NCBI GenBank assembly: GCA_963666365.2
Contig: CAXXNF010000002.1
Location: 1,088,001 to 1,152,000, forward strand
DNA from: Syntrophales bacterium
Lineage (GTDB): Bacteria > Desulfobacterota > Syntrophia > Syntrophales > UBA2210
DNA: 64,000 nt
Direction of reading: 5' to 3'
The notes beneath the pieces were generated by a model that was given only the letters and a program-made list of their open reading frames with translations, was not told the DNA's origin and searched no databases. How positions within the stretch are numbered: position 1 is the stretch's first letter; every line of letters starts with the position of its first letter. Positions 9,524-23,424 of the stretch are shown here, in pieces. The translations under genes and the position numbers were made by a program.

Positions 9524-10936
9524 TCACCTCTCTGCCTTCAATGAGCCTTCGAAGCGACCATCCCGCAGACAGGTCAACACCTCTTTGCGATATTCTCTTG
9601 AGAAAGGCCGCGGCTCGCGCAGTATCTCGGGCACATCCGAATTCATCAGGGACAGCAGTCTATTGAGTGCGCAGTACATATCCACGGGCGGGCACACATG
9701 CCTCGTCATGTATCTGACGAGTTTAAACGTTTTGAGCGCGTCAAACCAGCTATGGATGTGCCGCAGCATCACCACATCACGTGTGCTGTTGTTTCCCAGT
9801 TTCCGCCACACCGGCGCAATGCCTTCTCTCACAAGAAAATCCGCAAGGGCAGGATGAATTTCCCTTGCCTGTTCCACTATATGTTCTTCATTACTCATTA
9901 CATTGTGCCTTATGCATTGAAGCCACTGCTTCAGGATATGAAACACTTCGGGATCATAGGTCACATAGTGAACAGGACGTCCATCGCCCAGTCGCGCCAT
10001 CGTCTTTCCCGTGCCGAAGGGGACGCGCATCGACACCCGCGCAGAGGGGCGCACGCGAGTATCGGTGATAATTGAAAGGGCCGTCGTTTTCTCCAGTTTA
10101 TTGAGAAAGTAAAAGTCTTCTCCCGCATCCCTGACACTCATTCCCCTGACCGACAGATACCCTTCCGCCGTGCAGACGATAGTTGAGCCGATGGAGTGAT
10201 AGGCGTAGGGAGACCCGGCATATTGCAGACCCAGAGTGTAATACCGTATAAATGTTTCATACCAGCATATCGCATCATCCGTCTTTTCGTCTTCTCCCTG
10301 CTGATGCGAAAAGGCAACGACAGCAGCGTTCAGTGCGCGACTCTTAAAGTGTGAGCGGATGCTTTTCAGATAGTTGGGTTCGACCAGGGCATCGGCATCA
10401 AGAGAAAAAATCAATCGCTGCCCCTGCGCATTATAATCAAACACCTTTAACGCCGCATCCATGCCGATTTTTCTCGCAAGACCCACGCCACCTCTTTTGC
10501 GCGGCAGTTCAAGGCCCGGCGACGATGCATCGATATAGGCAAGAGGAAGCCCGGCATCTATAATTTCCCTTGCTTCAGAACCGTCTTCCGGCAAGGGACG
10601 CCTGTCCATAATCCGGCGTACTGCATCGATGGTTGCGCGATTATCTGCGATATCGGCGTTCGCTGCATCTCCTTCCTCCCTGTTGTTTATCACACAGAGG
10701 GCAAGAGTTTTTTTGATCTGTGCACGATCATTTCTGGAAAGCGATGCAAGGGTTCTAAAAAGGTGCGCCGATTCCGCCAGTGCAGGAATGACGACCACAC
10801 TCTCGATACCGCCGAGAACCGGTTTTGTAATGCGCCACTTCCTGTCAGCCCCGTAACACCTCAGATACTTTTGAACCTTTGGGGGAACTGCCGCCCTTTC
10901 ATCGGCTGTATCATCGCAACTTTGTAATTTCTTCAT
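9524..10936 (-). CDS. Uncharacterised GT-A fold (family 2-like) glycosyltransferase
   Basis: VVVIPA, GGVGLARKIGMD, DxD motif (LDAD), GEDFYFL, RVPFGTG. Confidence 0.7.
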   Translation of the reverse strand: MKKLQSCDDTADERAAVPPKVQKYLRCYGADRKWRITKPVLGGIESVVVIPALAESAHLFRTLASLSRNDRAQIKKTLALCVINNREEGDAANADIADNRATIDAVRRIMDRRPLPEDGSEAREIIDAGLPLAYIDASSPGLELPRKRGGVGLARKIGMDAALKVFDYNAQGQRLIFSLDADALVEPNYLKSIRSHFKSRALNAAVVAFSHQQGEDEKTDDAICWYETFIRYYTLGLQYAGSPYAYHSIGSTIVCTAEGYLSVRGMSVRDAGEDFYFLNKLEKTTALSIITDTRVRPSARVSMRVPFGTGKTMARLGDGRPVHYVTYDPEVFHILKQWLQCIRHNVMSNEEHIVEQAREIHPALADFLVREGIAPVWRKLGNNSTRDVVMLRHIHSWFDALKTFKLVRYMTRHVCPPVDMYCALNRLLSLMNSDVPEILREPRPFSREYRKEVLTCLRDGRFEGSLKAER

Positions 10937-13764: not shown

Positions 13765-13980
13765 TAATCTCTACAACTCCCTTTAAATTCGTGTAGTTCT
13801 AGCATAAATGCGCTCCTAAGATCAACAGAATTACATCGCAGGTCCCTCTTTATCGGTCTGTCACTTGCAAAATTTCACGCTGAGTAGTAAGGAAAGTGGA
13901 AAAGTAGGAAGAGTGGGAAGAGGGGTTTTATTTTTCAGACGTCTCATCCCACTCCTTAATGATGCGAAGGGAAGAATCCG

Positions 13981-14463
13981 ATGAGCGATGTAACGAGGGT
14001 GTTTATCCACGGACTCGAAAGCAGCGGGAAGGGCACGAAAGGCCTGTTTTTCAGTGAACATTACCCTGACATGATTATTGAAGATTATTATGGCCCGCTC
14101 GGCGCAAGAATGGATACGCTGCAAAAGGTCCTTGAAGGGAAGGATGCGCTCATTCTCGTGGGTTCCAGTTATGGTGGATTGATGGCGGTGTTGTTTGCCT
14201 GCGCCAACCCGGAGAGGGTGAAAAAACTGATCCTGCTGGCGCCGGCTCTCGAACTGCAGGAGTGTGCCGAGTTCAAAGACAGGCGGCTCGATATCCCTGC
14301 AATCGTCTATCACGGGCGGCATGATGACGTTGTGCCTGTAGAGCCGGTACGAAAAATTGCCGCCGACATGTTTCCAAACCTCGAGCACCACATTATTGAT
14401 GACAACCATTCCATAGAAAAAAACTTCAAATTGCTGGATTGGAAACGTCTCCTGTGCTATTGA
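13981..14463 (+). CDS. Small alpha/beta hydrolase (YqiA-like esterase)
   Basis: FIHGLESS, GSSYGG nucleophile elbow, HGRHDDVV, DDNH. Confidence 0.88.
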   Translation: MSDVTRVFIHGLESSGKGTKGLFFSEHYPDMIIEDYYGPLGARMDTLQKVLEGKDALILVGSSYGGLMAVLFACANPERVKKLILLAPALELQECAEFKDRRLDIPAIVYHGRHDDVVPVEPVRKIAADMFPNLEHHIIDDNHSIEKNFKLLDWKRLLCY

Positions 14464-14487
14464 CAATCAGTTGCGCTGTTGTATATT
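14460..14487 (+). promoter_or_regulatory. Putative sigma70 promoter for the NIL-ferredoxin gene
   Basis: TTGACA-16 bp-TATATT. Confidence 0.5.
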
Positions 14488-14959: not shown

Positions 14960-15292
14960 TTATTTTTTATCTGCGAAGAATTCACTCCCCTTCTCGACGA
15001 TTCTGTCTACTTTTTCTGTAAAGACTTTGCCTTTTTCGATCGCACCTCTGCCCTTTTCCATGATGTCGCCTGTATGAGTCCTGACGTCCTCTATGGTGGT
15101 TTGAATTTTGTCGGAAAATTCATTCGGCGCCTTGTAGTAGAGGTACCCGGCAATGCACAAAAGCACTATCCCGAGTATTAAAACCAGTTTGATGATTTTT
15201 TTCATCAGGAAGTAGAAAATTAAAAGCGCCAGAAGCGCCATCGCCATCAGAGCGACCGGGTTGGCAGACAGATACTGCAATAAATCGTCCAA
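14960..15292 (-). CDS. Hypothetical membrane protein (2 TM plus charged tail)
   Basis: AGGAGG RBS before TTG 15292; two hydrophobic segments. Confidence 0.7.
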   Translation of the reverse strand: MDDLLQYLSANPVALMAMALLALLIFYFLMKKIIKLVLILGIVLLCIAGYLYYKAPNEFSDKIQTTIEDVRTHTGDIMEKGRGAIEKGKVFTEKVDRIVEKGSEFFADKK

Positions 15293-15315
15293 CGGGAATA
15301 CCTCCTGCAACGGCG

Positions 15316-15729
15316 TTAGAGGGTGATAACCGGTCTAAACAGAGGAATGGCGACCTCTTCGGTTCTGTCATCCCAGACCACTTCAACCGGCATGTTGCAC
15401 CGCACCTCATCGGGCCGGCATCCGATTATATTTGTGATGAGATGAGGCCCTTCATCAAGTTCCACTATCGCCGCCACATAGGGAACCTCTCCGGTGAATG
15501 CGGGATGAAAGGCCTTGTGATACACGACATAGCTGTACACTCGTCCCCTCCCTGACGCAACAGTCCATTCCGAGTTTCTTGAGCAGCACTTCGGGCAGAG
15601 AAACGAAGGCGGCATACGAAAGGCGCCACAGTTGCGGCACTGCTGGATTTTCAGCTGGTGTGTTCCACAGGCGTCCCAGAACGGCTTTGTATCGGCATTG
15701 ATGCCCGGCAAAGGTTTAATATCGCTCAT
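15316..15729 (-). CDS. DUF35 Zn-ribbon/OB-fold protein (ChsH2 C-terminal-like thiolase partner)
   Basis: PFWDAC, CRNC...CPKC, GRGRVYSYVV, PYVAAIVELDEGP; 4 nt after the thiolase stop. Confidence 0.92.
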   Translation of the reverse strand: MSDIKPLPGINADTKPFWDACGTHQLKIQQCRNCGAFRMPPSFLCPKCCSRNSEWTVASGRGRVYSYVVYHKAFHPAFTGEVPYVAAIVELDEGPHLITNIIGCRPDEVRCNMPVEVVWDDRTEEVAIPLFRPVITL

Positions 15730-15733
15730 GATA

Positions 15734-16888
15734 TTACCACCTCCTCAGTATGTAACAGGCATGGGTTTGCAATATGCCCCCATTATCGCTGCACAGAATT
15801 ATTTCCGGTTCTCTTGTGTCGGTGGCGGGACCCAGTTGCCGACCGCCGCAACGACCCATGAGCTGCATGACTGCTTCCGTAAGCGGCGTCAGTCCCATAT
15901 GATAGGCTTCCGAAAGCTGTCCCCCTGAGGTATTGACCGGCATGGCGCCTCCCGGTTCGATTGTTCCGCCGGCAAACCATCCCTCTCCTTCGCCGGGACC
16001 GAAAAATCCATAATCCTGAAGAGTTATTTCAACCGTGTAGGTAAAACAGTCGTAAATTTCACAGGCATCTATATCGGAAAGGGCAATTCCCGCCATATGA
16101 AGGGCGTCCGCACCCGCTCTCACGGCGCCGGTGGGGCCGGCAAGATGGAGGGCCGTCTGAAGATCAGCCGACGGGTTGTGCTGCCCCATCCCCATAATCG
16201 TGACAAGATTGTGTTTGAGGTCGCGGGCGCGTTCAACCGTTGTTACTATGCAGGCCCTTCCTCCATCATTGATCAGGCAGTTATCGGGAAGGCGGAATGG
16301 TTCGACCAGCCATTTTGAATTGAGATACTCTTCCTCGGTCATCGTGCGATCATGCATTATGGCCCGTGGATTGAGGTTCGCCCACTTTCGCTGCCCTACG
16401 GCGATGTGTTTCCATGTATCGGGACCGGTATGAAATTCATGCATCGCCCTGCGTGCGGCCATTGCATATCCCCCCGTTGCACCAAAAAGACCCCATATCG
16501 CTTCGTCACCGCTCATTTCCGTGAGCATTTTTACCATGCTGTCGCCAGAATGAGCGTACGAGAGAAGCACATAGTTACAAAGACCCGATTCAAGCGCGCC
16601 AACTGCGTGCAGTAAATGACTGCGCGATCAATTCGCGTCCTGCGCCATAAATGTGGGAGATAATCCCAGCTGCTGCGCCACAAGATAGGGCGTCACATCC
16701 CTTTCACCGGTCGGTGCAATAAAATGTCTGTAGAGAATAAGCCCGTCGATGTCCCGGGGGTTTAACCCCGCATCTTCAATCGCCTGCGCGCATGCCTCCA
16801 GATGAAAACTGAGCGTTGTTCTATCCGACACGTTCCCCTGAGGGGTATATCCTACCCCGACTATGGCATATTTGTCCTTCACACTCAT
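15734..16888 (-). CDS. Thiolase-fold (SCP2/Ltp2-like) protein, 384 aa, in-frame UGA at codon 87 (probable selenocysteine)
   Basis: Tracked ORFs 16628-16930 and 15734-16570 share one frame and only TGA 16628-16630 separates them. AAGGAGG RBS before ATG 16888. Motifs AIVGVG, AIEDAGL, NPRAI, EIYDCFT, NTSGGQLSEAY. Confidence 0.8.
16594..16625 (-). promoter_or_regulatory. Candidate bacterial SECIS hairpin
   Basis: After UGA: uc GCGC a GUCA uuu ACUG CACG CAGU UGGC GCGC, 12 bp with a U bulge and the apical loop about 18-19 nt after UGA (folded by hand). Confidence 0.5.
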
Positions 16889-16945
16889 AGGGCCCTCCTT
16901 TTCGACTGCAGTATTTCCGTTTATATGCACACGACTCGAATTCCC

Positions 16946-17494
16946 CTAGAGAGAGGCATTCAGCTCGTCCCCTGATTCATTGATTTCATTGTCCCCCGTG
17001 AGCTGTTTTTTCAGTTTTTCGATTTCCTTACGCGCCCTTACAAGATCATCCGTGGTAATTTTCAGGCGTTCGACAAGAATTTCCGAGAAAATACGATAGA
17101 GCATACAGGAAAATACAAGCTTATCTTTTCCCGCTAACTTCTCCAAAGCTGCCACATCCGTTGCAATACACACCGTCTCGCTTACCGCATAGGCGGAGGC
17201 CGAGCGGGGCGCCCCTCCCGCCGCCGCCATCTCACCGAAAATATCGCCCCTTCGCTTAATAAGCGTGACCTCTCTATTGTCTTTCACGATCCTGACAGAT
17301 CCCGATAAGAGCAGATAGAGGAGAGTATCGCGGTTTCCCTCATCAATGATATATTCCCCGGCGTCATATCGATTGATTGTGCTCAACTTCAGAGCGCCTT
17401 GAAACTCTTCTTCCGAGAAGGATTTTAAAATCGGCAGCTCTCGAACTTGTGACATCAACTCCTGACTCAGCTCGACAAAGTTCGATTGAAGCAT
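16946..17494 (-). CDS. Stand-alone cyclic nucleotide-binding domain protein
   Basis: YIIDEG, GDIFGEMA...PRSASAYA; no HTH; coiled-coil-like tail. Confidence 0.88.
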   Translation of the reverse strand: MLQSNFVELSQELMSQVRELPILKSFSEEEFQGALKLSTINRYDAGEYIIDEGNRDTLLYLLLSGSVRIVKDNREVTLIKRRGDIFGEMAAAGGAPRSASAYAVSETVCIATDVAALEKLAGKDKLVFSCMLYRIFSEILVERLKITTDDLVRARKEIEKLKKQLTGDNEINESGDELNASL

Positions 17495-17611
17495 CGTTTT
17501 ATTCCACCTTTCTTCTGCCGTATATAGTGAACTCTATTACACCAAAAAGGGCATCTATATCAATAAGTGAGGCGAAGCGACACTATGATCTTGCCTGTTC
17601 CCCCTTCAGTC

Positions 17612-18427
17612 TCATAGCTCGATGCTGTCAAAAGGGCGTAGAATTCTGATGGTCGCCTTCGGCACCGATGCCCCTATGCGCTCTATAAAGGACTTCATTT
17701 TTAAAAAAGGAAGTGAAGCTACGTACCCGTCTTTTCCAACCGGAAGGGTAAAATCATCAAAGTGGAAGGGGATGATAAGCGACGGCTTCAACATCTGCAG
17801 GAGGGATGTCGTGTATTCTGCTGCATATTCCCATCCGGGAACACACAGGCACAGCACGTCACACCATCGCCCTTCAAGTTCCGATTCGATAAAGTTCGCA
17901 CTCCCCACATGAATAAAGGAAATCCCGTCGATTTCAAGATGCGGCATAAACATCCCGCCCAATCGATACTCTTTCGCCTTCAAGGGAAGACGGGCTGAGG
18001 GATCTATTTCACCGGGGTAGGGCACCTTTCCCATAAGCACCCTCCCGTGACAGGAAGGAATCATGGTCACGGCGGCGGCGCTGATTTGAATACGTTCATT
18101 ACCCTTACATACGATGACGCGTTCCTCTTCACCATAGAACCCCATGAGCGTCTGAAGACTTTCGCTTCCAATGACCGGTCCTTCGCAATACTTTGCCATC
18201 AGCGGTATGTCCAGGGCATGGTCAAAATGCGTATGTCCGACAATGATCGCTGCGCAGGGCGCCGAGAGGGATTCGGCATAGGCGCCGACGCTGTCTTCGC
18301 GGGGGGTGAGGAATCCGAGAAAAATCTCTCGCTTCGACGGCCGGGAAAGATAGGGATCGATCAGCATCGTCCTTCCCTTCGCAGTGATTTCGCAGCCCGC
18401 CGTACCCAGCCATCGGAATGTCACCAT
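17612..18427 (-). CDS. Metallo-beta-lactamase-fold hydrolase
   Basis: RWLGTAG, IDPYLSR, HTHFDH, IPFHFDDF. Confidence 0.9.
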   Translation of the reverse strand: MVTFRWLGTAGCEITAKGRTMLIDPYLSRPSKREIFLGFLTPREDSVGAYAESLSAPCAAIIVGHTHFDHALDIPLMAKYCEGPVIGSESLQTLMGFYGEEERVIVCKGNERIQISAAAVTMIPSCHGRVLMGKVPYPGEIDPSARLPLKAKEYRLGGMFMPHLEIDGISFIHVGSANFIESELEGRWCDVLCLCVPGWEYAAEYTTSLLQMLKPSLIIPFHFDDFTLPVGKDGYVASLPFLKMKSFIERIGASVPKATIRILRPFDSIEL

Positions 18428-18446
18428 TGCGCAGCTCACTCCCTTT

Positions 18447-20315
18447 TTAACTGGATCTCAAAAACCAGATCGTTGCCGCCGATTCGTCAAATAAGGCGGA
18501 CCCATCCTCAATTGCATTGAGTGCCTCCCAACTGCGCGCAATCATTTCAGACGTTGGATACAGGGAATCGGAAGAGATTCTCAATCCCTTCCCGACCATG
18601 ACCTCGGCCCTGTTGAAAGCGCCGGCCGAGGCATTAATAATCAGTCCCGTTTCACTGCATGCGTCCGATGCAAGGTAGAGCACCATGGCCGATACCATCC
18701 GCGGGTCCATCTTCTCCGCCTGCCCCTCCGGCATGACATCCGCGTTCATGCGCGTCGCCGCGAGGGGCGCAATGGTATTCACGGTGATGCCATAGGGTGT
18801 TGCCTCGCGGGAAAGCGCCCTCATAAGACCAATGAGTCCCATTTTTGCGGCGCCGTAGTTTGACTGCCCGAAATTACCGTAAAGACCTCCCACTGAAGTG
18901 GTCATAATGATTCTTCCGTATCCCTGAGCTGCCATATGCTCAAAGGCCGCCTGCGTGACATGAAAGGCGCCGTTCAGGTGCACATCGAATACGGCACGCC
19001 AGTTTTCGATGGTCATCTTTACGAAACTCTTGTCCCGTATGATTCCTGCGTTATTTATCAGAATATCGACTTTGCCGAAGGCATCGAGCGCCCTTTTTAC
19101 AATCGCCCGTCCTCCCGCAACCGTCGCGACGGAATCGCACTGGGCTACAGCCGTTCCTCCGAAGGCTCGTATTTCCTGCACCACTCGCTCCGCCGCGGTT
19201 CCAGTGCCTTCTCCCGCCCCGTCTCTGGGCACCCCGTAATCATTTACCACGACAAAGGCGCCTCGCCGGGCGAGTTCCAGGGCATACACCCTGCCCAGCC
19301 CTTCTCCGGCGCCGGTGACAATTGCCACCCGGCCGTCGAAGCGGATGTCATCTTTCGGTAAGCGTTGTGTGGGTAAATTCCCGGAGGCCTCAATCGATGG
19401 TGTGGAAAAATCCACTATCTTTTCGAAAAGTTCACCGATCATGCCGTCCTGATCCCAGTAAGGGACCGCATTATCAAGTCGTGAAATTTCCGCCCATGCC
19501 TGTGCAACATCTTCCACGTCTACAGAAGCGCCATTAATTTCCGGGACATGACTTTTCCCTGTCAAAACGGCGGCCCTGGCATAGGTTCCCGCCCCGGCTG
19601 CATATATCTTTCCCGATTCGGCGCATTCTTGTGATGAAAGACAGACCGCCATGGGAGAAACATAGGCCGGATCAATATCCCGTCGGTCGTTCCCGGCATG
19701 CGGCACACCCATTGTGGAAGGTAAGATCAGCGGAATGAGAACATTGACCCCGATATTGTATTTTCTTCCCTCAAGCTTGATCACGTTCATAAGACCGACA
19801 CAGGCCATGGACGCGGCACTTCGCATCGCACCCCCCGATGACCCAAACAGTATGGTCTCGGGTAAAACAAACACTATTCTTCCAAAATTATTTTCACGCA
19901 TCGCTCTGAATGCGGGTCGGCACAGAAAAAATGCTTCTTCAATAGGTTCGATCGTGCCGGTATGCCAGGACACTGGCGTAATATCGGTGAAGGAACCGCC
20001 GGATCGGGACACATCGGGCATATGGATCAGAATTTGAAGGGTTCCGGAATGTGTGAGCGCACCGGCGATCAGGGCCTCCCCCCCCTCATTCGACGCCTCG
20101 TACAGGACGGAATCGTATGTGCCATGCATTCCTTCAGCCCTGCTGATCATCTCGCTGTCCCGGCGTTCTGATCCTTTCTTCATGCCACGCACCACATAAC
20201 AGCCACGACTTTCCAGTTCCATCGCGATCCTATGGCCCAGATCCCCGCCTCCCGTGATCAGGGCCGTCTGCCCCTCAAAACGGATTGAATGGTTCATGTC
20301 GTTATTCGAAACCAT
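18447..20315 (-). CDS. Tandem double-SDR protein (MFE-2/Fox2-type hydroxyacyl-CoA dehydrogenase-like); N-terminal copy degenerate
   Basis: C-domain: VTGAGEGLG, INNAGIIRDKSF, NFGQSNYGAAK. N-domain: ITGGGDLG with no YxxxK. Confidence 0.85.
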   Translation of the reverse strand: MVSNNDMNHSIRFEGQTALITGGGDLGHRIAMELESRGCYVVRGMKKGSERRDSEMISRAEGMHGTYDSVLYEASNEGGEALIAGALTHSGTLQILIHMPDVSRSGGSFTDITPVSWHTGTIEPIEEAFFLCRPAFRAMRENNFGRIVFVLPETILFGSSGGAMRSAASMACVGLMNVIKLEGRKYNIGVNVLIPLILPSTMGVPHAGNDRRDIDPAYVSPMAVCLSSQECAESGKIYAAGAGTYARAAVLTGKSHVPEINGASVDVEDVAQAWAEISRLDNAVPYWDQDGMIGELFEKIVDFSTPSIEASGNLPTQRLPKDDIRFDGRVAIVTGAGEGLGRVYALELARRGAFVVVNDYGVPRDGAGEGTGTAAERVVQEIRAFGGTAVAQCDSVATVAGGRAIVKRALDAFGKVDILINNAGIIRDKSFVKMTIENWRAVFDVHLNGAFHVTQAAFEHMAAQGYGRIIMTTSVGGLYGNFGQSNYGAAKMGLIGLMRALSREATPYGITVNTIAPLAATRMNADVMPEGQAEKMDPRMVSAMVLYLASDACSETGLIINASAGAFNRAEVMVGKGLRISSDSLYPTSEMIARSWEALNAIEDGSALFDESAATIWFLRSS

Positions 20316-20527
20316 TGCCTGACCTTTCTCAGTATTTATAGCTGGCAGTAAGAATAATACATTCATCCTATAAAACCAAGCGGTATATTCATCACGCTGA
20401 TTTAACAGACCCTGAACTCACACCACGTGATCATCGTGAACTCTTGAAGCGAGAGAGAGCAAATTCATCTTTCAATAGCGCTTTCAATATGGCAGTATCG
20501 TGCACAAGGACATATGGGTGCTGCGCG

Positions 20528-22279
20528 ATGTACGGCTGGTGCGGAAAAATTCTGAGGATCGACCTGACAACCAGGCATTTCTGCGCCGAAGAACCGGACG
20601 GCAAACTTCTGCATACCTGCATCGGCGGCAGAGGACTCGCGGGCCACTATCTTTCTCAGGAGACTGCCGGAAACTGGCACGATCCCTCCATGCCCCTCCT
20701 CTTATTTGCCGGACCGCTCGTCGATACGGCTTCTCCCACGTCGGGACGAATGACGATCATGGCGCGCTCGCCATTAACGGGGACAGTCGGAGACGCATCG
20801 GTAGGGGGAAATCTTGGAACGTTTATCAAAAAGGCGGGGTGGGACGGCGTAATCATCACAGGGAGGAGCGACTCTCTCTGTGGTATAGAAATCGATGATG
20901 GCACTGTATCCATTGTGGATGCCTCACATCTTGCCGGAATGAAAATCGGCGCCCTGTCACAACATCTGAAGGGAAAAGGAGCCGTTGCCGCCATCGGTCC
21001 CGCGGCGGAGAAGGGCGTACTTTTTTCGAGTGTAATTATAGACGGCCACTTTGCGGCGGGACGAAACGGCATCGGGTGCGTCTGTGCGTCAAAAAACATC
21101 AAGTACCTGCGCATAAGAGGTTCCGGCAGGACAGAGGTCTTTGATCAGAAAGAACTCATAAAGGCTCGCGAAGATATCACCCGCCTGATTGCCGCCTCCC
21201 CTGCCCTTCTCGGCGAACTTGGTCTTGGCCGTTACGGAACACCGGCGCTGTACGATTTGATGCACACACGGCGCATGATGCCCACCGATAATTTCAGAAA
21301 GACCCGTTTCGATCACGCGTCCTCCATGAATGCCTGTGCGCTGCACAGAACCTACCGCCCCCGCAGGGCTGGATGCCGTGGCTGTCACATCAATTGCAAG
21401 AAAATATCGCCTGAAGGAACGGTGATTCCGGAATTTGAATCACTTTCTCATTTCAGCGCCCTTCTGAGCAATCGGGATCTGTCGTCCGTCGTTGAAGCGA
21501 ACAGGATCTGCAATGAGCTCGGCATGGACACGATTTCGGCTGCCTCGACGCTTGCCTGCTACGCCGAAATTGAAGAAAGAGCCCTTGCGCCCGAAGAGAT
21601 CCTTGGTCTTTTACAGGATATCGGCCTGGGAAGAGGCATCGGCATCGCTCTGGGACAGGGATCGGCCCGCTATGCGGAATCGCAGGGCCGTCCGGAATGC
21701 TCCATGTCGGTAAAAGGACAGGAATTACCCGCCTACGATCCGAGGGGCGCCTACGGAATGGCACTTGCCTATGCCACGTCGACGCGTGGCGGATGTCACC
21801 TGCGCGCCTACCCGATCTCGCATGAGATTCTCAGAAAACCGGTGGCAACCGACCGATTCACCTTCAGCGGCAAGGCCCGCGTCATCAAAATCGCCGAGGA
21901 TCTCAACGCGGCCGTCGATTCTCTTACGGCCTGCAAATTCGTATTTTTTGCGGCTTCGCTGGAAGAATATGCACGCGTCTTTTCCGCCGTGACCGGGGTT
22001 TCTACGTCCGCCCAGGATCTTCTTAAGGCAGGAGAGCGGATATGCTACCGGGAACGAATCATGAATGCCGCACAGGGTTTTTCGGCAGATGACGACGATT
22101 TGCCCGACCGGTTCTTCACTAAAGAAGGATCGAGCGGAAACAATATTTCAATACCGCCCCTTGACCGAAAGGATTTTCTGGAAGCACGATCGAATTATTA
22201 TAAGATTCGAGGGCTCAGTAACAGGGGGATGCCTACGGAAGAAAAGGCAAAGGAGCTGGGGCTTTCGTGGAATCAATGA
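20528..22279 (+). CDS. Aldehyde:ferredoxin oxidoreductase family (W/Mo-pterin)
   Basis: MYGWCGKILRIDL, SPLTG, AAGRNG, CRGCHINC, GMDTIS, PAYDPRG, TRGGCHL. Confidence 0.93.
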   Translation: MYGWCGKILRIDLTTRHFCAEEPDGKLLHTCIGGRGLAGHYLSQETAGNWHDPSMPLLLFAGPLVDTASPTSGRMTIMARSPLTGTVGDASVGGNLGTFIKKAGWDGVIITGRSDSLCGIEIDDGTVSIVDASHLAGMKIGALSQHLKGKGAVAAIGPAAEKGVLFSSVIIDGHFAAGRNGIGCVCASKNIKYLRIRGSGRTEVFDQKELIKAREDITRLIAASPALLGELGLGRYGTPALYDLMHTRRMMPTDNFRKTRFDHASSMNACALHRTYRPRRAGCRGCHINCKKISPEGTVIPEFESLSHFSALLSNRDLSSVVEANRICNELGMDTISAASTLACYAEIEERALAPEEILGLLQDIGLGRGIGIALGQGSARYAESQGRPECSMSVKGQELPAYDPRGAYGMALAYATSTRGGCHLRAYPISHEILRKPVATDRFTFSGKARVIKIAEDLNAAVDSLTACKFVFFAASLEEYARVFSAVTGVSTSAQDLLKAGERICYRERIMNAAQGFSADDDDLPDRFFTKEGSSGNNISIPPLDRKDFLEARSNYYKIRGLSNRGMPTEEKAKELGLSWNQ

Positions 22280-23424
22280 TGTACAAATATGAGCAAAAGC
22301 TGAGTGAGGCGGGCCTTACCGAAGAGGGAGCGCCCCTCATGGGGGTGCTCGATGCGGAACTTCTGTGGAGCAGGCGCAATCGACACACCCCGTTTCTTGA
22401 AAGACTCTTTAAGGAACTGAATATCAGTTCTCTTCTGTTTTCCGAACCCAGAGAGCCCTATCGCACGATTATCGATCACCTCTGCCGCACTTCGGACGGA
22501 ACGATCTTTCCGGAAGACTGTGAAACGCGCACATTTCTACATGATCTCCCCGTGGCCGGGACACTCAGTGCTGCAGAGATCGCGGCCTTTCTCAAACACC
22601 GCAAGTGCGTTCTGATTCCGGGACATGGCATTATCACCTTTGGGACGGTCAGTCCCGAACAGGCGTTTATCACGTACAGTTCCGTCTGTTTTGCCGTCTT
22701 TGTAAAATTTTTTTCGGACATGCTCTACAGAAAAAAGCGGGGCACGATTTCCCTTGAAGAATTAAAGATTTTCAGACGGGTGCGCACTATGCTCGATGCA
22801 CCTGTTTCCAATGCTCCCCTGCTCGCCCAGTCCCCTTTCTCCGACGAAAAAGAAGTGCTGCGTGTTATTGAGGAAGCAGGGAAAGAAGTGGTGCGGTACG
22901 GTCTCGTGGATTCTTACTTCGGCAATATCTCTTACTGTTTCCAGGGTACGCTCTATATAAGTCAGACCAGCAGTTCCCTCGACGACCTTGCCGGGTGCAT
23001 CGATCCCTGTCCTCTCGACGGATCATCCTGTGCAGGCATCACTGCCTCGAGCGAACTCCCGACCCACCTGGAAATCGTTAATAATTCCAACTCAAGGGCA
23101 ATCCTTCACGGACACCCGAAATTTTCTGTGATTATCTCGATGGACTGCGACCGTGACGACTGCCTGGCTCGAGGTCTCTGCCATCGGCGCTGCCCCGAAA
23201 GACGGCTTCTCGACGACATTCCTATTGTACCGGGCGAGGTGGGTACGGGTCCCTTCGGCCTCTGCACCACCGTCCCCGATGCCGTCCTTGAGGCCTGCGG
23301 CGCCATCGTCTATGGCCACGGGGTTTTCACCACAAGCAAATCCGACTTCAACGAGGCCTTTTCCCGTCTGCTGAATATAGAAAACAGGTCCCGAGAAGAA
23401 TACTTTCGGCGATTCGACGAATAA
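22276..23424 (+). CDS. Class II aldolase/adducin-like protein with duplicated domain
   Basis: DSYFGNIS, ASSELPTH, ILHGHP and YGHGVF in the C-half; PGHGIITFG in the N-half; ATGA overlap with AOR. Confidence 0.75.
   Translation: MMYKYEQKLSEAGLTEEGAPLMGVLDAELLWSRRNRHTPFLERLFKELNISSLLFSEPREPYRTIIDHLCRTSDGTIFPEDCETRTFLHDLPVAGTLSAAEIAAFLKHRKCVLIPGHGIITFGTVSPEQAFITYSSVCFAVFVKFFSDMLYRKKRGTISLEELKIFRRVRTMLDAPVSNAPLLAQSPFSDEKEVLRVIEEAGKEVVRYGLVDSYFGNISYCFQGTLYISQTSSSLDDLAGCIDPCPLDGSSCAGITASSELPTHLEIVNNSNSRAILHGHPKFSVIISMDCDRDDCLARGLCHRRCPERRLLDDIPIVPGEVGTGPFGLCTTVPDAVLEACGAIVYGHGVFTTSKSDFNEAFSRLLNIENRSREEYFRRFDE

Follow-up and report, generated by a model that had tools for sequence, protein, structure and literature searches.

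A thiolase-superfamily gene of a Syntrophales bacterium with an in-frame UGA predicted to be read as selenocysteine

A histidine normally activates the catalytic cysteine of thiolases. The SCP2-thiolases combine an HDCF motif with a nucleophilic cysteine; for catalysis TcLtp2 uses Tyr294 of a YDHF motif and Tyr344, and CtSal uses Tyr302 and Cys304 of YDCY, with glycine at the nucleophile position (PMC12329534). Here we describe a relative of these enzymes encoded in 64,000 nucleotides (nt) of DNA from a Syntrophales bacterium (GenBank assembly GCA_963666365.2, contig CAXXNF010000002.1, positions 1,088,001 to 1,152,000 of the forward strand), which we refer to as the window. The gene is interrupted by one in-frame TGA at codon 87. 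The TGA inside this thiolase-like gene is confirmed as a real observation and, judged from its orthologues, the gene is almost certainly intact and encodes a selenoprotein. By comparative criteria its product is a member of the thiolase superfamily as well as a bacterial selenoprotein. Orthologues with the TGA are called Sec (selenocysteine) forms and those with a cysteine codon Cys forms; together they make up the clade.

The DUF35-associated and SCP2 thiolases chosen for comparison were the archaeal acetoacetyl-CoA thiolase (6esq/6et9, 7yvy), BbsAB (7pxp) and the Leishmania and zebrafish SCP2-thiolases (3zbg, 6hrv). The clade shares with them the fold (template modelling score 0.82-0.87), a separate gene for a zinc-ribbon/OB partner, a Cys or predicted Sec in the nucleophile loop and the acid/base cysteine of xDCF. 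It differs in having Sec for Cys in most members, Tyr279 for the HDCF histidine, Tyr329 for the histidine of the GHP turn, a loop that is 3 residues shorter and an invariant arginine two residues past Sec, and the identity is only 20-26%. We rejected the label of a canonical thiolase because both catalytic histidines are absent. The closest solved structures of known function are Ltp2-ChsH2 (6ok1) and Sal-Shy (9myr), with E-values of 1.6e-38 and 1.5e-36 and 30% identity. They have in common with the clade the tyrosine of YD[HC][FY], the Sal-type cysteine, the Ltp2-type second tyrosine and a DUF35 partner. However, these aldolases have glycine at the nucleophile position and no covalent catalysis (PMC12329534), whereas the clade has an invariant Sec or Cys, and its partner is a free DUF35 protein of 137 amino acids instead of one fused to MaoC. 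No steroid-degradation context was found among the variable neighbours of the window gene and its orthologous loci. On these three grounds the label of an Ltp2/Sal aldolase was rejected too. PhlC of the PhlABC Friedel-Crafts acyltransferase (5m3k, 9skh/9skm) shares a local motif, PTFM..ANC, and a DUF35-type partner (PhlB), but is only 20% identical overall, and no KAS-III-like PhlA gene was found in the window or in the 1.5-kb flanks of 28 orthologous loci. Like the genes of known bacterial selenoproteins (formate dehydrogenase, SelD and others), the gene has an in-frame UGA, a small hairpin at 16-37 nt with G then U in its loop, Cys homologues and a host with selABCD; unlike it, members of the catalogued families almost always have redox or metal-binding roles.

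The gene occupies a single minus-strand frame that runs from an ATG at 16888 to a TAA at 15736-15734, with 384 sense codons and the TGA (16630..16628) as the sole internal stop; AGGAGG lies 5 nt ahead of the ATG. This reading of the frame bears out the initial annotation, which had joined two thiolase pieces into an otherwise intact 384-codon gene with a ribosome-binding site and a lone TGA, and the read-through text given there is identical to our read-through protein (around codon 87, ...FMAQDAN-U-SRSHLLHAVGALESG...). In the list of open reading frames (ORFs) made with translation table 11, the gene appears as two separate ORFs of 100 and 278 residues. Pfam Thiolase_C_1 scores over its cut-off in the read-through protein (E 3.4e-38). 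Contigs of runs X1 and X3, from two studies, span 15316-16950 with 0 differences from the window, and a contig of run X7, from a third study (record 15), which is ~99% alike, covers 16215-16844 with 7 differences, none at 16628-16630; as the window itself may derive from one or two of these runs and the comparison is with contigs only, these matches show presence only. Because contigs from other runs and studies keep the TGA at 16628-16630, it is not an assembly slip, and because dozens of independently assembled genomes have the same codon in this column, it is beyond chance. Separately, short and deeper contigs of the metagenome runs X4 and X7 match only window positions 16578-16642, the UGA plus the hairpin described below, as expected if other organisms share an invariant element. 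Among 23 runs listed, none that carries the sequence is from RNA. TGA is an ordinary stop in this region, where it terminates 7 of the 19 neighbouring Pfam-supported genes; a general reassignment of UGA was rejected for this reason.

The read-through protein was searched against six-frame translations of whole genomes, and the stops within each match were counted. In a set of 60 relatives this gave 17 close orthologous places (70-83% identity), with exactly one TGA in 14 and none in 3. The TGA of the 14 is always in the same column (DAN-U-SR); the other 3 read DANCSR or EANCAR. Across the order (339 genomes), 41 places in 39 genomes matched at E<=1e-120, 31 of them with one TGA (the window's own included) and 10 with none. 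An even sample of the phylum (401 genomes) gave matches in 11 genomes, with TGA in 8 (own included) and no TGA in 3. Cysteine occupies column 87 in all non-TGA orthologues (6/6 of those with DNA examined) and in 119/119 full-length database homologues of 66-75% identity, taken from the best 120 of 2347 matches (E<=0.001). The 120th of these best 120, P0116, is a 267-residue C-terminal piece with 94% identity, which is the gene-caller product expected from a Sec form; P0123 is likewise a 267-residue C-terminal piece. The alternation of TGA with cysteine that the initial annotation had put forward as a check is therefore present: among the clade orthologues and the 119 homologues, column 87 is Cys or TGA only, never another residue. 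Two genomes carry two Sec-form copies each, G033 (L026, L042) and G320 (C223, C8). In the Cys-form genome G355, the frame of locus L049 (L049:1-2661) is open for 909 residues across the gene; no Pfam family matches the upstream 500 residues, and either a fusion or merely an open GC-rich frame could account for this.

One genome per species (GTDB r232) was scanned for TGATC followed, after 15 free bases, by the hairpin, which gave 59 loci in 59 species genomes. In all 59 the match lies in frame in this gene, with at least 87 codons open upstream and all 144 open downstream to the end of the locus; as these loci were selected by the pattern, they give a count of carriers and no test of the hairpin. 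By their record titles the carriers belong to Syntrophales, Syntrophaceae, Smithella, Syntrophus, Desulfobacterales, Desulfatiglandales, Desulfarculaceae and others, and the cultured strains Desulfatibacillum alkenivorans DSM 16219 and Desulfatitalea alkaliphila M08but have both TGA and hairpin. The Sec/thiolase-like family is spread through syntrophic and sulfate-reducing Thermodesulfobacteriota, cultured strains included.

The genome from which the window derives (4.0 Mb, 2 contigs) has the full machinery that the initial annotation had suggested looking for: selA (608 bits), selB (361 bits), selD (383 bits) and tRNA-Sec (76 bits), all above the curated cut-offs. The selD of this genome (C1:483557-484486, outside the window) itself has one in-frame TGA, so that the selenophosphate synthetase would be a selenoprotein too. 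selA was found in 5/5 other Sec-form genomes tested and also in 5/5 Cys-form genomes tested, and the latter result led us to reject the idea that Cys forms arose because the Sec machinery had been lost. Both halves of the gene are under equal purifying selection, as a comparison of the two sides of the TGA, likewise suggested earlier, has established. The two parts are alike in their identity to the window's protein, 0.73 (codons 1-86) and 0.74 (codons 88-384). In six Sec-form pairs (dS, the synonymous divergence, 0.27-1.44) the ratio of non-synonymous to synonymous divergence (dN/dS) was 0.07-0.13 before the TGA and 0.06-0.14 after it; these ranges exclude the three pairs with the window's gene, in which dS was saturated in at least one part.

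A candidate selenocysteine insertion sequence (SECIS) follows the TGA. It is a hairpin of 17 nt, GCACGC-AGUUG-GCGYGC, that begins 20 nt past the U of the UGA, and RNAalifold on 11 Sec forms returned one consensus hairpin, GC(A)CGC-AGUUG-GCG(C/U)GC. Hairpin and codon use were compared in the DNA of 28 orthologues, 22 Sec and 6 Cys forms. The string GCACGCAGTTGGCG[CT]GC is exact in 20/22 Sec forms and in 0/6 Cys forms; the two variant Sec forms keep the stem, one (L028) altering the mismatched third stem letter and the other (L039) having CGUGG as its loop. Synonymous change was measured as the share of same-residue pairs with differing codons in seven-codon windows (384 windows). In the Sec set, the value of 0.119 at codons 92-98 is the lowest of the 384 windows (median 0.552), versus 0.608 at the same codons in the Cys set (median 0.591). 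The bacterial SECIS (bSECIS) model calls for a loop of 3-9 nt, a stem of 4 bp or more, a G within the first two loop positions, a distance of 16-37 nt after the UGA and a minimum free energy (MFE) of <=-7.5 kcal/mol (PMC13188914). The 5-nt loop, the stem of 6 positions, G then U at loop positions 2-3 and the 23 nt from UGA to loop all fit, and the U variant of the hairpin, with an MFE of -9.2 kcal/mol, is inside the -7.5 limit.

Some of the results speak against a SECIS element at this site. The window's own 17-mer, with its A.C mismatch, reaches only -5.3 kcal/mol, above the -7.5 limit of the model. RNAalifold reported 0 covarying pairs for the 11 Sec forms, as is to be expected of an invariant hairpin. 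Folded on its own, the window's sequence takes an MFE structure unlike the conserved hairpin over both 43 nt and 81 nt, and the z-scores (-0.59 and -0.48) are unremarkable; given these z-scores and folds, single-sequence folding is uninformative either way. An Rfam scan of window positions 15000-17500 with E up to 10 gave 0 matches. The case for a SECIS element is made by the contrast in conservation between Sec and Cys forms, not by thermodynamics. From the comparative evidence we consider it very probable that UGA-87 is decoded as selenocysteine by way of the hairpin and SelB: the in-frame mRNA hairpin 20 nt past UGA-87 would recruit SelB with Sec-tRNA(Sec), and selenocysteine would be inserted.

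A tree was built from 62 rows, comprising 27 loci (the partial L040 was dropped), 30 database homologues (every fourth of the 119) and 5 outgroups. All Sec forms fall within one subclade (parent support 100/96), where they are interleaved with Cys forms. On this tree the Sec/Cys label has to change 7 times, and well-supported branches force 6 of these changes. Most letters of the hairpin persist in L027, a Cys form that sits among Sec forms. Given one and the same hairpin throughout, we infer a single origin of Sec in the clade with repeated reversion to Cys.

The AlphaFold2 model of the protein (150-row alignment) has a predicted local distance difference test score (pLDDT) of 94.7 and a predicted template modelling score (pTM) of 0.94. 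Foldseek against the PDB ranked first 4u4e (a putative thiolase from Sphaerobacter), followed by 6ok1 (Ltp2-ChsH2(DUF35)), 9myr (Sal-Shy(DUF35)) and the archaeal thiolases 7yvy and 6esq, with 7pxp (benzoylsuccinyl-CoA thiolase), SCP2-thiolases, TbSLP and PhlC at lower ranks; the probability was 1.00 for 6esq, 7yvy, 7pxp and 6hrv. No NCBIfam model reached its cut-off, the best being NF004811 with 245.8 bits versus 421. In the model, residue 87 is in loop 84-90, between strand 80-83 and helix 91-100, and as modelled this loop is the structural element that bears the nucleophile in thiolases. In a phmmer alignment PTFMAQDANC matches PhlC, ungapped around the cysteine, and residue 87 stands opposite Cys88; a C88S mutant of PhlC is mentioned in the PDB title of 9skm. 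The initial annotation had put the UGA at the nucleophile position of a thiolase-fold enzyme. The fold stands, and so does the placement in the right strand-to-helix loop, ungapped on PhlC Cys88; profile alignments give a register of -1 or +2 instead, and the protein is no canonical thiolase, with tyrosines for both catalytic histidines.

All 119 Cys homologues (from the best 120 of 2347 matches) share twelve residues without exception: C87, R89, C104, Y279, D280, C281, F282, N319, S321, E327, Y329 and C347. The acid/base cysteine C281 is invariant in 119/119 homologues and 28/28 clade loci, and Cys/Sec87 in 119/119 homologues and 28/28 clade members; H330 varies (F in 80, Y in 25 and H in 4 of 119). 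The site of the clade is thus a hybrid: it has the cysteine of xDCF as in SCP2-thiolases and Sal, both tyrosines of Ltp2 in place of the histidines, and Sec or Cys in the nucleophile loop. The nearest outgroup, P0124 (56% identity), keeps YDC and EAY and has no Cys at column 87, and a wider family of 125 full-length representatives (33-56% identity) keeps Y279 in 117, D280 in 120 and N319 in 123. As the wider family mostly lacks Cys and P0124 lacks it too, Sec/Cys87 and, with it, Arg89 and the 3-residue shortening of the loop are, by sequence comparison, clade innovations on an aldolase-like background.

We propose that the enzyme is a two-gene complex of the thiolase superfamily, made of a catalytic subunit and a small zinc-ribbon/OB (DUF35) subunit, that would act on a CoA thioester. 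The selenolate of Sec87, ionised without the help of a histidine, would attack the carbonyl of the CoA-bound substrate, and an Se-acyl (selenoester) enzyme intermediate would form while a C-C bond is cut or made. Cys281 may serve as an SCP2-type acid/base and shuttle the proton, with Tyr279 and Tyr329 polarising the thioester and the carbonyl; the acyl group would be carried on selenium until CoA or another acceptor takes it. Sec, already ionised at neutral pH, could in this way compensate for the replacement of histidine by tyrosine. We are inclined to see Sec87 as a covalent, acyl-carrying nucleophile that gives a selenoester intermediate in C-C cleavage or formation. The more general proposition, that a natural family uses Sec as an acyl-carrying nucleophile and not as a redox centre, with the low pKa and the leaving-group character of the selenolate replacing activation by histidine, seems to us evenly balanced.

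Several findings count against the proposed role of Sec87. Both catalytic histidines of thiolases (those of HDCF and of GHP) are replaced, by the invariant Y279 and Y329. Profile alignments set residue 87 at -1 or +2 of the cysteine in EAACASG of 6esq/7yvy; this shift is due to the clade's loop being 3 residues shorter, and the outcome depends on where the 3-residue gap is placed. Column 87 is mostly occupied by S, T, G or A in the wider family, and two of the nearest solved relatives are retro-aldolases, whose catalysis requires no nucleophile. Apart from DUF35, no neighbour gene is conserved in the 28 orthologous loci, so that no pathway can be named.

In a different reading the protein is a real selenoprotein that acts as a retro-aldolase or lyase of the Ltp2/Sal type on a 3-hydroxyacyl-CoA. 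Tyr279 would be the base and Cys281 or Tyr329 the acid, and Sec87 would form no acyl intermediate; it could be a proton relay, contact substrate or metal, or pair with Cys281 or Cys104 in a selenenylsulfide that works as a redox switch. The top solved matches after 4u4e are indeed the aldolases 6ok1 and 9myr, and Y279, C281 and Y329 match Tyr294/Tyr344 of TcLtp2 and Tyr302/Cys304 of CtSal (PMC12329534). Cys87 is missing from P0124, the closest outgroup (56% identity), despite its YDC and EAY, and from most of the 125 wider relatives. Such a retro-aldolase or lyase leaves unaccounted for the invariance of Cys/Sec87 (119/119 and 28/28), which, together with the clade-specific Arg89 and the shortened loop, points to a new catalytic rather than a passive role for the residue. 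In the selenoenzymes described in selenoprotein reviews Sec replaces catalytic residues, residue 87 is aligned on the acyl-accepting Cys88 of PhlC, and the DUF35 partner is free-standing, versus fused to the MaoC hydratase in ChsH2 and Shy. We regard this alternative as possible but rather unlikely.

Two further explanations question the selenocysteine itself. A plain nonsense mutation or a sequencing error in a fresh pseudogene, the alternative raised at the outset, would be compatible with a single sequence, and gene callers do split or truncate the gene (P0116, P0123). The comparative data refute it for practical purposes: the same TGA is present in 31/41 orthologous places in the order and in the 59 species genomes found by pattern, dN/dS is ~0.1 on either side of it, a nucleotide-invariant hairpin follows it in TGA forms only and contigs of three studies keep it, so that its probability is negligible. 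Slightly less remote, yet still very improbable, is a read-through that inserts another residue in place of Sec (Trp, Cys or Arg by near-cognate decoding) or a local recoding independent of SelB; the shortness of the hairpin and its weakness in the window's own copy could be cited in its favour. Against it stand the strict alternation with Cys, the full Sec machinery of the genome, the fit of the hairpin to the loop and spacing rules of bSECIS and the use of TGA as terminator in 7/19 nearby genes.

The DUF35 gene begins 4 nt past the stop of the thiolase-like gene and is directly downstream of it in 27/28 orthologous loci; the remaining locus, L040, is cut by the end of its contig. Other neighbours are sporadic: ECH in 2 loci, and MaoC, a CoA-transferase, an AMP-ligase and a double SDR once each. 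A CdhD-like gene (corrinoid Fe-S protein subunit-like) is located upstream in five loci of two genera (L025, L026, L027, L030, L040), joined there in L026 and L027 by a gene for a 2x[4Fe-4S] ferredoxin. A PF04463 (DUF523 / 2-thiouracil desulfurase) + DUF1722 gene adjoins the pair at L031:306-1280, L033:2879-3853 and L037:122-1201, and in one locus (L044:829-1335) a C_GCAxxG_C_C gene adjoins it. Both the PF04463-type and the C_GCAxxG_C_C families are in the selenoprotein table of PMC13188914. Of the upstream neighbours in the window (Table 1) only the cNMP gene recurs, in a same-genus relative, and the ORF of 116 residues has a 49% identical counterpart in a same-genus genome only.

Table 1. 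Positions of the features discussed, in window coordinates.
Feature	Position	Strand	Basis or remark
Thiolase-superfamily gene, predicted selenoprotein	15734..16888	-	384 codons + TAA
UGA codon 87, predicted to be read as selenocysteine	16628..16630	-	TGA/Cys alternation among orthologues
Ribosome-binding site AGGAGG	16894..16899	-	direct sequence reading
Candidate SECIS hairpin, stem GCACGC/GCGCGC with A.C mismatch, apical loop AGUUG	16594..16610	-	RNAalifold + conservation
DUF35 partner gene, 137 aa (Cys4 zinc ribbon + OB fold)	15316..15729	-	Pfam zf-ChsH2, OB_ChsH2_C
cNMP-binding protein, MBL-fold protein, 639-residue protein with SDR domain in its C-terminal half	16946-20366	-	upstream neighbours
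Aldehyde:ferredoxin oxidoreductase, class II aldolase-domain protein	20444-23424	+	opposite-strand neighbours
ORF of 470 residues, no Pfam match	9524-10936	-	
ORF of 201 residues, no Pfam match	13861-14466	-	
ORF of 116 residues, no Pfam match	14960-15310	-	just downstream of DUF35 gene

The selenium of the selenium-containing thiolase of Clostridium kluyveri that Hartmanis and Stadtman described in 1982 is reportedly non-specific selenomethionine, not encoded Sec. The initial annotation had placed the present protein outside the folds of the classical bacterial selenoprotein families, and the selenoprotein catalogues examined agree with it at the level of their main texts. The word 'thiolase' is absent from those of PMC13188914 (the 2026 catalogue review, table included), PMC12013277 (deep-Sep), PMC9312934 (2022 review), PMC5029168 (2016 survey), PMC1976440 (Olavius symbiont) and PMC13326102 (BSepDB, whose family table is outside this scope). 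A full-text literature search for thiolase with selenoprotein or selenocysteine, the coverage of which leaves out most subscription journals, found no report of such an enzyme.

The gene is split or truncated by gene callers in dozens of genomes of anaerobic degraders of fatty acids, hydrocarbons and aromatic compounds, so that metabolic reconstructions miss the intact enzyme. With two cultured carrier strains that have the same hairpin, the question is directly testable. Nearly all catalogued selenoproteins are oxidoreductases or handle metals or chalcogens; if the proposed role of Sec87 is true, Sec in a CoA-ester enzyme of thiolase fold would extend encoded selenium to acyl-transfer and C-C bond chemistry. 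Because the Sec and Cys versions occur side by side on one tree, the family would then also be a natural system in which Se-acyl and S-acyl intermediates may be compared.

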